This document shows positions 1 to 4,451 of a stretch of 4,451 bases of DNA, one piece after another (position 1 is the first letter of the stretch; the number at the start of each line of letters is the position of its first letter). The position numbers and the translations under genes are program-made. The notes beneath the pieces were generated by a model, which had not been told where the DNA came from, searched no databases, and was given only the letters and a program-made list of their open reading frames with translations. Origin of the DNA: a virus (taxonomy: Duplodnaviria; Heunggongvirae; Uroviricota; Caudoviricetes); the IMG/VR virus record IMGVR_UViG_2529292832_000008. The stretch is one strand, 5' to 3'.

Positions 1-505
1 GGAGAAATAGGTGTTCTGTTTGCCGTTATCCGTTGTCTGTGTACGGGGAGTTCTGGCTTTCGGTGCCAGCATCTGCGCCACACCACCGAGGATCATACTG
101 GCCCCTGCCGCATACATGCCCGATACAGCCGCGCACCCAGCCAGCCCACAGGGTTCCACCATGCCACCGCAATAACGCCGCCCCCAGCACCACCTGAAAC
201 ACACCGCCACTTTTAGCTCCCGCCAGACGCGGCACGATATGGATCACGGCACCATTTGCCAGCGGCTCATTAAGACGGGCAGATAATTCGGTTTCACCTG
301 CATCACGCCCGGCAATGCGCACCTGATACCAGCCGTCATTCAGTTTCTGACGAAACGCCGGGAGCTGTGTGGCCAGCGCCCGGATGGCTTCGGCCCCCGT
401 TTTCACACGAAGGTCGATGCGGCGGCCAAATCGTTGCAAATCCCCGTAAAGGCAGATGCGTGCCATTCCCGGTGACGCCAGAGGGAGTGTGTGCGTCGCT
501 GCCAT
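1..505 (-). CDS. I: Tail assembly protein (lambda gpI-like), N-terminal ubiquitin-like domain; 3'-partial, with an apparent reading-frame discontinuity around positions 95-185 (possible pseudogene or indel error)
   Basis: Start ATG at 503-505, embedded in the 3' end of K (103-nt overlap), with a weak GAGG at 517-520. The N-terminal ~110 residues (MAATHTLPLASPGMARICLYGDLQRFGRRIDLRVKTGAEAIRAL...AKSGGVFQVVLGAA) look like a real beta-grasp/ubiquitin-like protein. The same frame then gives 49 codons rich in W/R/C/G (LLRWHGGTLWAGWVRGCIGHVCGRGQYDPRWCG...) and stops at 26-28. A different frame, open from 243 down to position 1, encodes ...GASMILGGVAQMLAPKARTPRTQTTDNGKQNTYFS, which looks like genuine conserved protein and continues off the window. 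The gene therefore probably extends past position 1 in that second frame. Confidence 0.7.
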
Positions 506-1146
506 TTGTCGGTATACCTCTCTCGTTTACTCAGTTGTTCAGGAATATGGTGCAGCAGCTCACCGTCGCCGCAGTAAATGGCGGCATGATTCGGCACCGA
601 TGAACCAAAGCAGCACAGCAGCACATCGCCAGGCTGCGCCTCTGTCAGTGGGACACGGTAAAAACCAGTCGCCTCCATATTGTCAAGATAGAGATTCTGA
701 CCGTGACGCCACCAGTCATCCCCGCGATAAAAATCCGGCATCTCAATCCCCGCCAGATGATAAGCATCCCGGAACAGTGTGTAACAGTCCGTCACACCGT
801 GCTCAAAGCGCCGCCCGGTGAGATGCGGCACACAGCGGAACTTATGAATCGTCCCCCGGCAGACCAGCCACCACGGCAAATCACTCTGCACCTGCAGCCG
901 CCGGTCGGCCTCACTCAGCCAGGGCAGACCACCGGGGTGGCTGTGGACCAGCGCCACAATCTCACCCTGCATTTCTGCCTGCAGCCAGTCTTCCGGCGAC
1001 ATACGGAAATACGCCTCCGGCTCACCGGAGATATTCGCGCAGGGGAAATATCTTTCCCCCTCCGGCGTGCTTACCACGAAGCCGCACGACTCCGCTGGCG
1101 CACATCGCCGGGCGTGCGCCAGAATCGCTGATTCTGTCTGTGTCAT
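403..1146 (-). CDS. K: Tail tip assembly protein (lambda gpK-like), two-domain JAMM/MPN metalloprotease + NlpC/P60 peptidase, 247 aa from the first ATG
   Basis: Minus-strand ORF beginning 5 nt after the L stop. Read from the translation: JAMM motif H-S-H-P-G-G-L-P-W-L-S-E-A-D (HxHx7Sx2D, residues 68-81) with an upstream glutamate in A-E-S-C-G (E20); NlpC/P60-like Cys in GVTDCYTLF (C121), His in PNHAAIY (H187), and a third polar residue in LLHHIP (H199/H200). An alternative internal start at Met49 (ATG at 1000-1002) would give a 199-aa product lacking E20. The last 103 nt overlap the start of gene I in another frame. Confidence 0.85.
   Translation of the reverse strand: MTQTESAILAHARRCAPAESCGFVVSTPEGERYFPCANISGEPEAYFRMSPEDWLQAEMQGEIVALVHSHPGGLPWLSEADRRLQVQSDLPWWLVCRGTIHKFRCVPHLTGRRFEHGVTDCYTLFRDAYHLAGIEMPDFYRGDDWWRHGQNLYLDNMEATGFYRVPLTEAQPGDVLLCCFGSSVPNHAAIYCGDGELLHHIPEQLSKRERYTDKWQRRTHSLWRHREWHASAFTGICNDLAAASTFV
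517..520 (-). promoter_or_regulatory. Weak candidate Shine-Dalgarno (GAGG) for gene I, within the K coding region
   Basis: Minus-strand sequence reads GAGGTATACCGACAAATG: GAGG is 11 nt upstream of the I ATG, which is longer than optimal spacing, so this is only a weak call. Confidence 0.3.
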
Positions 1147-2179: not shown

Positions 2180-4451
2180 CGTCCACCTCCGGAGAACAGG
2201 CCACCATCACGCATCTGTGTCTGAATTTCATCACGGGCACCCTTGCGGGCCATGTCATACACCGCCTTCAGAGCAGCCGGACCTATCTGCCCGTTCGTGC
2301 CGTCGTTGTTAATCACCACATGGTTATTCTGCTCAAACGTCCCGGACGCCTGCGACCGGCTGTCTGCCATGCCGCCCGGTGTACCGACATAACCGCCGGT
2401 GGCATAGCCGCGCATCAGCCGGTAAAGATTCCCCACGCCAATCCGGCTGGTTGCCTCCTTCGTGAAGACAAACTCACCACGGTGAACAATCCCCGCTGGC
2501 TCATATTTGCCGCCGGTTCCCGTAAATCCTCCGGTCGCAAAATGGAATTTCGCCGCAGCGGCCTGAATGGCTGTACCGCCTGACGCGGATGCTCCACCAC
2601 TGGCAGCACCGCCAATGGCGCTGCCGATACTCCCGACAATCCCCACCATTGCCTGCTTAAGCAGAATTTCTGTCATCATGGACAGCACGGAACGGGTGAA
2701 GCTGCGCCAGTTCTGCTCACTGCCGGTCAGCATCGCCGCCATATTCTGTGCAATACCATCAAAGGTCTGCGTGGCTGCACTTTTTACCTGCGACATACTG
2801 TCCGTGGCGCTCTCTTCCCACTCACTCCAGCCGGACTTCAGGCCTGCCATCCAGTTCCCGCGAAGCTGGTCTTCAGCCGCCCAGGTCTTTTTCTGCTCTG
2901 ACATGACGTTATTCAGCGCCAGCGGATTATCGCCATACTGTTCCTTCAGGCGCTGTTCCGTGGCTTCCCGTTCTGCCTGCCGGTCAGTCAGCCCCCGGCT
3001 TTTCGCATCAATGGCGGCCCGTTTTGCCCGTTGCTGCTGTGCGAATTTATCCGCCTGCTGCGCCAGCGCGTTCAGGCGCTCCTGATACGTAACCTTGTCG
3101 CCAAGTGCAGCCAGCTGGCGTTTGTACTCCAGCGTCTCATCTTTATGCGCCAGCAGGGATTTCTCCTGTGCAGACAGCTGGCGACGTTGTGCCGCCTCCT
3201 CCAGTACCGCGAACTGATTTTCAGCCTTCCACAAATCCCGGCGCTGCTGGCTGATTTTCTCATTTGCTCCGGCATGCTTCTCCAGCGTCCGGAGTTCTGC
3301 CTGAAGCGTCAGCAGGGCAGCATGAGCACTGTCTTCCTGACGATCGCCCGCAGACACCTTCACGCCGGACTGTTTCGGCTTTTTCAGCGTCGCTTCATAA
3401 TCCTTTTTCGCCGCCGCCATCAGCGTGTTGTAATCTGCCTGCAGGATTCTCCCGTCTTTCAGTGCCTTGTTCAGTTCTTCCTGACGGGCGGTATATTTCT
3501 CCAGCGGCGTCTGCAGCCGTTCGTAAGCCTTCTGCGCCTCTTCGGTATATTTCAGCCGTGATGCCTCAGACTCGGCCCAGTCCTTTGCTGCCATCTCTCT
3601 GGCCTTTTCAAGATCGGCCTGCAACGTGGCGGCTGAAAGCCCAAGTTGCGCATTCGCTCTGTCCTCCCATGCTCCCCGGAGATTGGCAAGAAATGCTGAG
3701 GTTTTACCGCGCCGGTGGCTCCGGCTCTGATACCACTGCCATTTTTTGTCCGCCTCATCAAAAGCCTTTTCTGCTTTCTCCAGCATTCCCTGGGCAGTGT
3801 CCGGGCGACCAATATCCAGCACCGAATCCCACATGGATTTGAATGCCCGTGCTGTCCTGTCTGCCCAGGTCTCCAGCGTGCCCATGTTCTCTTTCAGGCG
3901 GCGGGTCTGGTCATCAAACCCTTTCGTTGCGGCCTCGTTCGCCGCCTGCAATGCCCCGGCTTCATCTCCGGAACGCTGCAACTGAGCAACATACGCAATC
4001 TGCTCCGCCGTCACGTTATGGAACTGACGTGCCATCGCTGTCAGTCCCGACGTCGGGTCTGTGGTCAGCTTCCCGAAGGCTTCAGCGACCTTGTCCACCT
4101 CCACGCCGGATGCAGAGGAGAAACGCGCCACACTCTGGCTGATCGCCTCAAACTGCTCACCACCACGCACACCGGCATTCACCAGCGCCGTCAGTGACTC
4201 GCTGGTCTGGTTAAACGTCAGCCCTGCCGCCTGCCCGGCTCTGGACAGGACCAGCATACGATCTGCCGTCAGTCCCGCCTGATTGCCGGAAAGGACCAGC
4301 GTTTTGTTGAAATCGGACAGGGTTGAGTTGCCCTGATACCAGGCATACGCCAGCGCCCCGGTCGCCACCGCCAGCGAGGTGGCCCCCACCATCGGCAGGG
4401 TGATCGCACCGGCAAGCCCCCGGAACATGGGGATCATCCCGCCGAAGGAGT
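2176..4451 (-). CDS. H: Tail tape measure protein (lambda gpH-like), 5'-partial; N-terminus lies beyond the window end
   Basis: Single long minus-strand ORF. The track starts it at Met 4437, but the frame is open to position 4451 (codons upstream read ...S-F-G-G before MIPMFRG), so the real start is outside the window. The translation has a charged, coiled-coil-like central region (e.g. RLKYTEEAQKAYERLQTPLEKYTARQEELNKALKDG, QQRRDLWKAENQFAVLEEAAQRRQL) and a Gly-rich hydrophobic segment near the C-terminus (AMVGIVGSIGSAIGGAASGGASASGG, about 2560-2652), as expected for a lambda-type tape measure. Its TGA stop (2176-2178) overlaps the ATG of the next gene (ATGA). Position directly upstream of M-L-K-I matches lambda gene order. 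Confidence 0.9.
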   Translation of the reverse strand, partial: SFGGMIPMFRGLAGAITLPMVGATSLAVATGALAYAWYQGNSTLSDFNKTLVLSGNQAGLTADRMLVLSRAGQAAGLTFNQTSESLTALVNAGVRGGEQFEAISQSVARFSSASGVEVDKVAEAFGKLTTDPTSGLTAMARQFHNVTAEQIAYVAQLQRSGDEAGALQAANEAATKGFDDQTRRLKENMGTLETWADRTARAFKSMWDSVLDIGRPDTAQGMLEKAEKAFDEADKKWQWYQSRSHRRGKTSAFLANLRGAWEDRANAQLGLSAATLQADLEKAREMAAKDWAESEASRLKYTEEAQKAYERLQTPLEKYTARQEELNKALKDGRILQADYNTLMAAAKKDYEATLKKPKQSGVKVSAGDRQEDSAHAALLTLQAELRTLEKHAGANEKISQQRRDLWKAENQFAVLEEAAQRRQLSAQEKSLLAHKDETLEYKRQLAALGDKVTYQERLNALAQQADKFAQQQRAKRAAIDAKSRGLTDRQAEREATEQRLKEQYGDNPLALNNVMSEQKKTWAAEDQLRGNWMAGLKSGWSEWEESATDSMSQVKSAATQTFDGIAQNMAAMLTGSEQNWRSFTRSVLSMMTEILLKQAMVGIVGSIGSAIGGAASGGASASGGTAIQAAAAKFHFATGGFTGTGGKYEPAGIVHRGEFVFTKEATSRIGVGNLYRLMRGYATGGYVGTPGGMADSRSQASGTFEQNNHVVINNDGTNGQIGPAALKAVYDMARKGARDEIQTQMRDGGLFSGGGR
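2184..2190 (-). promoter_or_regulatory. Shine-Dalgarno sequence for M (GGAGGTG), inside the 3' end of H
   Basis: Minus-strand sequence reads TCTCCGGAGGTGGACGATGA: GGAGGTG sits 4 nt upstream of the M ATG, which overlaps the H TGA stop. Classic translational coupling. Confidence 0.7.

Follow-up and report, generated by a model that had tools for sequence, protein, structure and literature searches.

Gene K of a lambda-like Escherichia coli prophage very probably starts at its first ATG and encodes an assembly factor of 247 residues that has two peptidase domains; the 199-residue K on record for phage lambda is most likely an artefact. The DNA analyzed here (the window, 4,451 nucleotides) carries the tail-tip genes of such a prophage on the minus strand in the order H, M, L, K, I. 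Sequence comparison and structural modeling strongly support the first ATG as the true start of K, as the initial annotation had proposed: domain coverage, a match to PDB entry 2kks, residue conservation, homolog N-termini, intact reading frames, selection, and an AlphaFold2 model all point to it.

According to the list of open reading frames, the full K coding sequence spans positions 403..1146 of the minus strand (247 codons plus stop). Its ATG (1144-1146) follows the L stop codon (TAA, 1152-1154) after a 5-nt spacer, ATCCC (1147-1151), the same arrangement that had been read from the sequence at the outset. The disputed N-terminal extension comprises codons 1 to 48 (1003..1146, minus strand), reads MTQTESAILAHARRCAPAESCGFVVSTPEGERYFPCANISGEPEAYFR, and includes the segment A-E-S-C-G-F-V-V listed in the initial annotation. 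The 247-residue form thus has the N-terminal stretch MTQTESAILAHAR, while the 199-residue form, starting at Met49 (ATG at 1000-1002, as originally located), opens with MSPEDW. The initial annotation placed the catalytic glutamate of a JAMM metalloprotease in this extension, which holds, although the residue is E19 (codon GAG, 1090..1092, minus strand) and not E20. E19 is the predicted general acid-base glutamate, a residue whose role in JAMM proteins has been described (PMC300881). The zinc-binding part of the motif, H68-S-H70-x7-S78-x2-D81, was correctly assigned to residues 68 to 81 (904..945, minus strand). The JAMM motif of lambda K has been in the literature since 2003; the full E...HxH-x7-S-x2-D motif is present in K, with E19 included only if translation begins at the first ATG.

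Residues 3 to 104 (835..1140, minus strand) form a JAB/MPN+ domain according to Pfam and Foldseek. The Prok-JAB family (PF14464) matches the 247-residue K with 53 bits (cut-off, 25) over profile positions 3 to 112 of 114, while the 199-residue form covers only profile positions 63 to 112 and fails the cut-off at 23.3 bits, which bears out the earlier expectation that a start at Met49 leaves an incomplete protease domain. The extension accounts for profile positions 3 to 41. On its own, it matches Prok-JAB (E=3.4e-5) and phage protein families (E=1e-21 to 4e-31), which is far beyond chance. PDB 2kks aligns with K residues 7 to 105, with E19 opposite the E of P-N-E-A-C-G, and the NCBIfam desampylase model aligns with residues 3 to 103, albeit with 30.8 bits, far under its curated cut-off of 130. 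The C-terminal part of K is an NlpC/P60 (C40) papain-like peptidase domain (residues 111 to 224; 475..816, minus strand), which PF00877 matches with 48 bits (cut-off, 23) over profile positions 1 to 105 of 105. C121, H187, and H199 of this domain show 95% conservation each across a set of 110 divergent homologs.

The structural check suggested in the initial annotation gave a concordant picture. The AlphaFold2 model of the 247-residue product has a mean pLDDT of 80, with values of 89 to 94 for residues 1 to 40, and the extension is modeled as a helix (residues 3 to 15) and two strands (21 to 27 and 30 to 36) of the JAB domain. Foldseek searches with this model retrieved Pyrococcus furiosus PfJAMM1 (5ld9_A; TM 0.64, rmsd 2.7 over 109 columns) as well as Rpn11 and CSN5, which have the MPN fold; on the NlpC/P60 side, MepS and Acd33800 were found. 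Profile matches and model together support the view that the JAMM domain is complete only with the N-terminal 48 residues, to which its predicted catalytic glutamate belongs.

A set of 2853 homologs was collected, and conservation was scored in 110 divergent ones. As the proposed homolog alignment was expected to reveal if codons 1 to 48 are coding, protein-level conservation extends through the extension, with E19 present in 95%, C21 in 91%, G22 in 96%, N38 in 95%, and F47 in 92% of these homologs; with P17 included, the range is 88 to 96%, and for H11, E19, C21, and G22, it is 82 to 96%. The zinc-binding residues H68-S-H70-x7-S78-x2-D81 are conserved at 91 to 96%. At position 49, the start of the 199-residue form, 61% of the homologs have Ile and 14% have Met. 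Almost all N-termini (101 of 110) lie within 8 residues of Met1, with one at +48, and with full-length homologs of 35 to 50% identity, the alignments begin at residues 4 to 10 of the query and at residues 3 to 15 of the homolog. Stops or frameshifts upstream of Met49, which would have spoken for the shorter protein, were looked for and found in none of 105 related viral loci; all 105 have an intact ATG-started frame of 243 to 247 codons that opens 4 to 9 nt after the L stop. For homolog P0169 (62% identical), no usable related viral loci were retrieved. At the synonymous level, dN/dS for codons 2 to 48 was 0.24, 0.11, and 0.10 in three comparisons, similar to the 0.12 to 0.25 seen elsewhere in the gene, indicating that the extension is under purifying selection.

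Upstream of codon 24, as far back as the preceding in-frame stop, the first ATG is the only start codon. Because this ATG lacks a Shine-Dalgarno sequence (anti-SD duplex, +0.7 kcal/mol) and lies 5 nt past the L stop, K initiation is most likely coupled to L termination. ATG49 is preceded, at a distance of 11 nt, by a strong Shine-Dalgarno sequence, GGAGG (1014-1018; 1000..1018 with the ATG, minus strand), with an anti-SD duplex of -9.5 kcal/mol, and a weak match resembling a Shine-Dalgarno sequence (-6.1 kcal/mol) precedes GTG24. The GGAGG-ATG49 signal misleads gene callers into a 199-residue K. One contig (L011) was called at 199 residues despite an intact 247-codon frame, and the lambda imm21 record labels the GGAGG site before ATG49 as an RBS.

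These signals bear on other possible starts. Two GenBank records use internal codons, PV340573 with GTG codon 24 (224 residues) and KT232076 with a 211-residue call, and GTG24 has its Shine-Dalgarno-like match; we nonetheless find a start at GTG24 or another internal codon scarcely credible, as it would delete the confidently modeled helix 3-15 as well as the conserved E19, C21, and G22. That K starts at Met49, with the upstream 149 nt untranslated, agrees with the historic annotation, the strong Shine-Dalgarno sequence ahead of ATG49, and the 199 residues returned by some automatic gene calls. This reading is highly improbable in view of the purifying selection on the upstream 48 codons, their lack of interruption in 105 of 105 loci, the conservation of their catalytic positions down to 35% identity, the need for them in a complete JAB domain, and the non-Met residue at position 49 of most homologs; moreover, a missing base had dictated the historic call (see below). 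A third reading has both proteins made, the 247-residue K through coupling to L and a 199-residue K, without a working JAB domain, from GGAGG-ATG49. The lambda genes C and Nu3 are nested genes and offer a likeness. Since the ATG49 signal is strong and invariant in the lambda-like clade while ATG1 lacks a Shine-Dalgarno sequence, some internal initiation may occur. Among 70 distinct lambda-like sequences, GGAGG is invariant and Met49 is found in 68, and synonymous divergence in this clade is 0.080 for codons 2 to 48 versus 0.116 to 0.173 downstream. However, GGAGG is encoded by E-P-E-A/D/E/G and may just follow the protein sequence, the 11-nt spacing is above the optimum, codon 49 is CTG or ATA in two lambda-like sequences, GGAGG is missing from a Salmonella-like clade, which has Ile at position 49, and Ile prevails at this position among the 110 homologs. 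The half-JAB fragment would also be without evident function. We consider two products unlikely, and a nested K in lambda and its close relatives, in which the 199-residue form plays a part of its own, or a regulatory one, in assembling the tail tip, quite doubtful.

Translation from the first ATG, which we favor, raises the question of lambda itself. As stated in the initial annotation, lambda K is annotated with 199 residues (14276-14875 in J02459.1 and NC_001416.1), leaving a 148-nt gap after L. The suspicion that the problem extends to lambda was justified, but it is more than a choice of start codon: J02459/NC_001416 is one G short after position 14266, which puts the extension out of frame with K. 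The missing base corresponds to position 1012..1012 of the window (minus strand), the third base of codon A45 (GCG). Within 14240-14290, the site reads GGAGGCGTATTTCC with the G and GGAGGCTATTTCC without it. In J02459, the frame opened by the first ATG does not run into K and closes after 76 codons. As the missing G places codons 1 to 45 out of frame, Met49 was the sole start open to the J02459 annotators. Once the G is put back, which all independent lambda sequences contain, K of lambda has 247 residues as well and differs from K of the window at only a few of them.

We did not find the G-less allele in viral, metagenome, and genome contig collections, in plasmids, or in 20,395 E. coli records, and wherever collections were scanned for the G-containing allele, it proved abundant. 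Fourteen contaminating lambda contigs from unrelated bacterial assemblies differ from J02459 only by this G over stretches of up to 8,000 nt; two of them span positions at which an Ur-lambda-like record differs, and these also contain the G. The G is likewise present in the lambda imm21, imm434, and DE3 sequences, the last of which we take to be PaPa-derived. The G-less GenBank records are the reference pair J02459/NC_001416, an unverified engineered strain, and OR974322. As no independent G-less assembly was found and the J02459-identical contaminant contigs all have the G, the 199-residue lambda K is most likely a reference-sequence error that was carried onward by annotation.

Several sequences that could have informed this point proved less useful. 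OR974322 follows the reference coordinates exactly, has noisy ends, and shows the Sam7 change but not the cI857 and ind1 changes; presumably all of these mark the commercial cI857 ind1 Sam7 strain, of which OR974322 thus has only one. It was rejected as independent G-less support and is probably reference-guided, since the reference-coordinate start and the absence of the cI857 and ind1 changes make fill-in from the reference likely. LC730321 (48,503 bp) was considered as a resequenced reference strain, but 15 differences, one of them an additional C at 20836 (presumably the stf repair site of Ur-lambda), place it in another lineage, so that it is not decisive alone. Contigs with the exact 199-residue lambda K were expected to be G-less, but the G is present in 8 of 10, those with a matchable site; their 199-residue calls are explained by the start chosen or by other indels upstream. 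The frameshifted 76-residue product of J02459 was absent from a collection of 15 billion proteins, a weak observation given that gene callers suppress frames overlapping K so heavily.

The missing G might, alternatively, be real, in that the cI857 ind1 Sam7 stock sequenced in 1982 had a true 1-nt deletion and lived on a 199-residue K or on a K split into 76- and 199-residue parts. Under laboratory conditions, K could then do without its first 48 residues. OR974322, a G-less record with the Sam7 change, could be taken in this sense, all the more because its consensus includes another indel. Against such a deletion stand the probable reference fill-in of OR974322, the G in all 14 de novo contaminant contigs that match J02459 over up to 8 kb and in lambda imm21, imm434, and DE3, the zero G-less matches in five other collections, and the essentiality of K (PMC10695390). 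We regard a true deletion as very unlikely. With a sequence error in the 1982 reference, the 199-residue model would have arisen from the lost G and then have been transferred to genomes with an intact frame, helped by GGAGG-ATG49.

The 247-residue start as such is already known. The RefSeq protein WP_001725868.1 ("C40 family peptidase," 247 residues) comes from DNA 100% identical to window K and starts at the first ATG, and PGAP annotation in RefSeq gives a 247-residue K, WP_000194780.1, in the lysogens BL21(DE3) and NBRC 3301. The annotation of the window is therefore unchanged. What is added here is the most likely origin of the 199-residue K, the G missing from the lambda reference; full-text literature searches returned no mention of this base or of the 247-residue start. 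Records of DE3, HK630, and lambda imm21 have taken over the 199-residue model. K as given in J02459/NC_001416, UniProt TIPK_LAMBD, and NP_040598.1 is short by 48 residues, among them the catalytic glutamate of a deubiquitinase-like domain. A corrected reference record would halt the spread of the truncated model, and studies of gpI processing by gpK need the 247-residue protein. A 2025 screen gives NP_040598.1 for its gpK clone, and a lambda two-hybrid map shows no tail partners for K.

The window shares with lambda the gene order H-M-L-K-I, with K between the minor tail protein gene L and the gene for the ubiquitin-like tail assembly protein I. A 798-nt query from the end of L through K is 95.5 to 95.6% identical to lambda at the nucleotide level (gpK entries TIPK_LAMBD, NP_040598.1, and AAA96551.1); the lambda entries have 199 residues because of the missing G, whereas the window gene is intact. 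A 2006 study predicted both the combination of JAB and NlpC/P60 domains in K and that ubiquitin-like gpI is cleaved (PMC1779556). K is an essential lambda gene needed for tail assembly, virions lack gpK (PMC10721106), and gpI is resolved only from residue 101 onward, directly past the S-G-G that belongs to its ubiquitin-like domain (PMC11101478). A 2025 meeting summary states, second-hand, that gpK cleavage of gpI has been experimentally shown (PMC12908700).

In the proposed course of events, termination of L would lead to coupled initiation at the K ATG (1144-1146) and to a 247-residue assembly factor. In its N-terminal JAB/JAMM zinc metalloprotease (residues ~3 to 104), E19 would position the catalytic water and H68, H70, and D81 would bind zinc; the C-terminal NlpC/P60 domain (residues 111 to 224) would act as a cysteine peptidase through C121, H187, and H199. 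Since K is homologous to lambda gpK, its JAB domain is predicted from the literature to cleave gpI, removing its ubiquitin-like N-terminal domain during tail-tip assembly, after which K would not be retained in the virion, as the lambda literature suggests.

K shares the fold and the full motif with JAMM/MPN+ isopeptidases acting on ubiquitin-like proteins, such as PfJAMM1 (5ld9/5lda), haloarchaeal desampylase, Rpn11, and CSN5, and a ubiquitin-like substrate encoded next to it has been predicted (PMC1779556). Unlike these isopeptidases, which remove conjugates, K has its JAB domain fused to an NlpC/P60 peptidase, and its predicted reaction is a peptide-bond cut by which a structural protein would lose its N-terminal ubiquitin-like domain. 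With E. coli MepS (NlpC/P60, C40), K has in common the Pfam match, the Cys-His-His residues, and the fold; in contrast to MepS, it is a phage assembly factor of the cytoplasm, for which no signal peptide is reported, and its substrate may be gpI and not peptidoglycan. The RefSeq name "C40 family peptidase" covers the NlpC/P60 part only and omits the JAB domain. Gene I, beside K in the window, is frameshifted, so that this prophage may make no tails.

The ORFs on the minus strand of the window are lambda-type tail genes: H, which runs off the end of the window, M (1850-2179), L (1152-1850), K (403-1146, 247 codons) and I, which starts at 505. Over a 798-nt query from the end of L through K, prophages of several human E. 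coli isolates are 100% identical to the window and lambda records are 95.5 to 95.6% identical to it; window K is an ordinary family member. Base for base, the sequence bears out the initial annotation in placing the first ATG of K (1144-1146) five bases (ATCCC) past the L stop (TAA, 1152-1154), Met49 at 1000-1002, and the metal-binding residues 68-81 (H68-S-H70-x7-S78-x2-D81) at 904-945. The catalytic glutamate of A-E-S-C-G (1090-1092) does lie in the extension ahead of Met49, as residue 19 and not 20.

This 48-residue extension is coding, and the K start at the first ATG proposed earlier is supported by domain coverage, conservation, ORF integrity, selection and an AlphaFold2 model, all five in agreement. 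The 247-aa K matches Prok-JAB (Pfam) over profile positions 3-112 of 114 with 53 bits, and NlpC/P60 downstream over residues 111-224; the 199-aa form aligns with Prok-JAB positions 63-112 only, at 23.3 bits, which is under the Pfam cut-off of 25 bits. The extension by itself matches Prok-JAB (E=3.4e-5), and 2kks, a solved JAMM-family structure, aligns with K residues 7-105, the glutamate of its P-N-E-A-C-G standing opposite E19. Scanning 1.84 billion representative proteins yielded 2853 K homologs, in which full-length proteins at 35-50% identity align from their own residues 3-15 with a query start at residues 4-10. Across codons 1-48, catalytic positions are conserved in the 110 homologs that were aligned, and the extension residues H11 (82%), A12 (78%), P17 (88%), E19 (95%), C21 (91%), G22 (96%), N38 (95%) and F47 (92%) are comparable to the zinc ligands of K (91-96%). 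Selection on codons 2-48 is likewise evident, with dN/dS of 0.24 in the lambda-like clade, 0.11 between clades and 0.10 in the Salmonella-like clade (0.12-0.25 for the remainder of K) and variable sites mostly at third codon positions. Residues 1-40 are the best-modelled part of the protein (pLDDT 89-94), forming a helix (3-15) and two strands (21-27 and 30-36). The model matches the JAMM folds of Pyrococcus JAMM1 (5ld9_A; TM 0.64, rmsd 2.7 Å over 109 columns), Rpn11 and CSN5 and, in its C-terminal half, those of NlpC/P60 peptidases such as MepS. As had been anticipated for the glutamate and the first strand, a start at Met49 would, by this model, strip the helix, both strands and E19 from the JAMM domain; the JAMM glutamate holds the catalytic water, and its mutation abolishes activity (PMC300881).

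The comparative data contradict Met49 or GTG24 as the sole K start. An intact, ATG-started ORF of 243-247 codons lies 4-9 nt past the L stop in 105/105 related viral loci of the E. coli and Salmonella-type clades, no frame being broken upstream of Met49. N-termini fall within 8 residues of the window's Met1 in 101 of the 110 homologs and at +48 in one, and codon 49 encodes Ile in 61% and Met in just 14%. In window K, the stretch from the upstream in-frame stop to codon 24 holds no alternative start codon. No Shine-Dalgarno precedes the first ATG (anti-SD duplex +0.7 kcal/mol), whose use presumably depends on translational coupling to L termination. A second, 199-aa product from ATG49 in the lambda-like clade is improbable: a GGAGG 11 nt ahead of ATG49 (duplex -9.5 kcal/mol) is invariant in this clade, where Met49 is found in 68 of 70 sequences, but the motif is dictated by the E-P-E residues, codon 49 is CTG or ATA in two lambda-like sequences, and GGAGG is missing from the Salmonella-type clade, where residue 49 is Ile.

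Lambda gpK is, as had been stated, annotated at 199 aa (J02459, NC_001416). The start-site question does extend to lambda, whose entry is short; its cause, however, is a missing base and not start choice alone. In J02459 and in NC_001416, which is its RefSeq copy, the sequence is GGAGGC-TATTTCC, against GGAGGCGTATTTCC in the window and other lambda sequences. The absent G falls after reference position 14266 (14266/14267); in the window it is the base at 1012, the last of codon 45. Without it the first-ATG ORF of J02459 reads in the wrong frame and ends at 76 codons, and Met49 is the earliest start giving the conserved K protein. The G is present in every independent lambda sequence examined and absent from the reference. 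A 34-mer with the G has at least 120 matches each in IMG/VR viral contigs and metagenome contigs and 23 loci in species-representative genomes; the G-less 34-mer has no match in any of these three collections. Among 50,697 phage records, a 54-mer probe seedable by the G-less allele only matched four, namely J02459, NC_001416, OR974322 and an engineered lambda whose record is unverified; it had no match in 72,556 plasmids or in 20,395 complete E. coli records. The extra base is found in all 40 of the best listed E. coli hits for the K region of the reference, among them the lysogens J53, NCM3722, BL21(DE3), C41/C43(DE3), BW2952 and NBRC 3301.

The most telling result on the G comes from 14 low-coverage contigs in unrelated bacterial assemblies (Neobacillus, Psychrobacter, Pseudomonas, Shewanella, Paenibacillus, Bradyrhizobium, Kitasatospora and others), which have the appearance of laboratory lambda contamination. 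Over 367-8,000 nt these contigs match J02459 without a mismatch, their single gap being the G. Two of them cover 17183 and 18835, where the Ur-lambda-like LC730321 departs from the reference, and their agreement with the reference there places them in its lineage. A real deletion in the sequenced lambda stock is very unlikely, and the G was very probably missed in the 1982 sequencing; at 48,502 bp the reference is probably too short by one base, and NP_040598.1, AAA96551.1 and UniProt TIPK_LAMBD, the 199-aa form, lack 48 residues. OR974322 was rejected as independent support for the G-less allele; it starts at exact reference coordinates, has noisy stretches and looks like a reference-guided consensus. 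Of the strain markers, it has Sam7 and lacks cI857 and ind1. Low-coverage contaminant contigs of laboratory lambda (L389-L411 in our comparison), some of full length at ~48.4-48.5 kb, occur in many unrelated published assemblies, among them Shewanella canadensis, Pseudomonas spp., Neobacillus, Bradyrhizobium and Kitasatospora.

The domain architecture, function and 247-aa start of K are already known, the start from RefSeq bacterial annotation; what is added here is a documented account of why the lambda entry has 199 aa. No paper stating its origin was found in the literature searched, most subscription journals lying outside it. The matter is one of curation with practical consequences, gpK constructs still being referenced to NP_040598.1. 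K is annotated at 199 aa where the G is absent (J02459, NC_001416, OR974322) and also where the ORF is intact (DE3, HK630, lambda imm21 and one Logan contig), at 211 aa in KT232076, at 224 aa in PV340573, and at 247 aa in ON470598, PV340536 and the PGAP proteins WP_001725868.1 (the window protein) and WP_000194780.1 (lambda K in lysogens). The stronger internal signal ahead of ATG49 probably helps the 199-aa model to persist. In a large protein collection, the extended form of exact lambda K occurs on 1000 contigs or more, compared with 194 for the 199-aa form. Several bacterial contigs with a 199-aa call (L012, L015, L017, L019-L021) have K N-terminal regions interrupted by indels in or near the GGAGGGGGAAAG run of codons 29-32, which look like long-read homopolymer errors and push gene callers to the Met49 start. 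The PHROG family phrog_7305 ("unknown function"), a 76-position profile, matches K residues 1-76 (E=7e-51; the extension is window 1003-1146). Its length equals that of the 76-codon frameshifted ORF of J02459, and it may derive from K gene calls that were split or truncated.

By sequence and model, K has a complete JAMM site (E19, H68, H70, S78, D81) and an NlpC/P60 triad (C121, H187, H199), and is most likely an assembly factor carrying two peptidases. The JAB domain was predicted to cut gpI at the C-terminal glycine of its ubiquitin-like N-terminal domain and so free that domain (Iyer et al. 2006, PMC1779556), and gpK is reported, second-hand from a talk by A. Davidson in October 2025, to cleave this domain once gpI is in the tail-tip complex (PMC12908700). 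Virions are without gpK (PMC10721106), and gpI is resolved from residue 101 on (PMC11101478), by our residue count directly past the S-G-G ending the ubiquitin-like domain, where we infer cleavage by K.

Window gene I (26-505, minus strand) has two separate 1-nt deletions near ~175 and ~133 relative to its closest relative, CP015912 (97.4% identical), both within a glycine-rich/hydrophobic linker. The ubiquitin-like N-terminal domain is in frame and the conserved C-terminal domain (ASMILGGVAQMLAPKARTP...) is shifted, the ORF ending at 26-28 after 159 codons. Gene I is broken either by prophage decay or by assembly error; if the break is real, the presumed substrate of K is defective in this prophage. 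Records disagree on where gene I begins (K/I overlap at 403-505 in the window; 995, 4262 and 1495 in the compared records L383, L379 and L001). In lambda and some PGAP records it opens at the ATG 103 nt within K, for a product of 223 or 215 aa; further PGAP records take a GTG that overlaps the stop of K, for 190 aa, or a TTG 37 nt within K, for 191 aa. A start at the upstream ATG or at Met14 seems more plausible, since the short forms would lose MARICLYGDL, the first strand of the ubiquitin-like domain. In the tape-measure gene H, ~200 nt at ~3568-3769 (minus strand) are without blastn-level alignment to lambda H and are flanked by sequence 94-95% identical to it, and this block is a mosaic or divergent segment.
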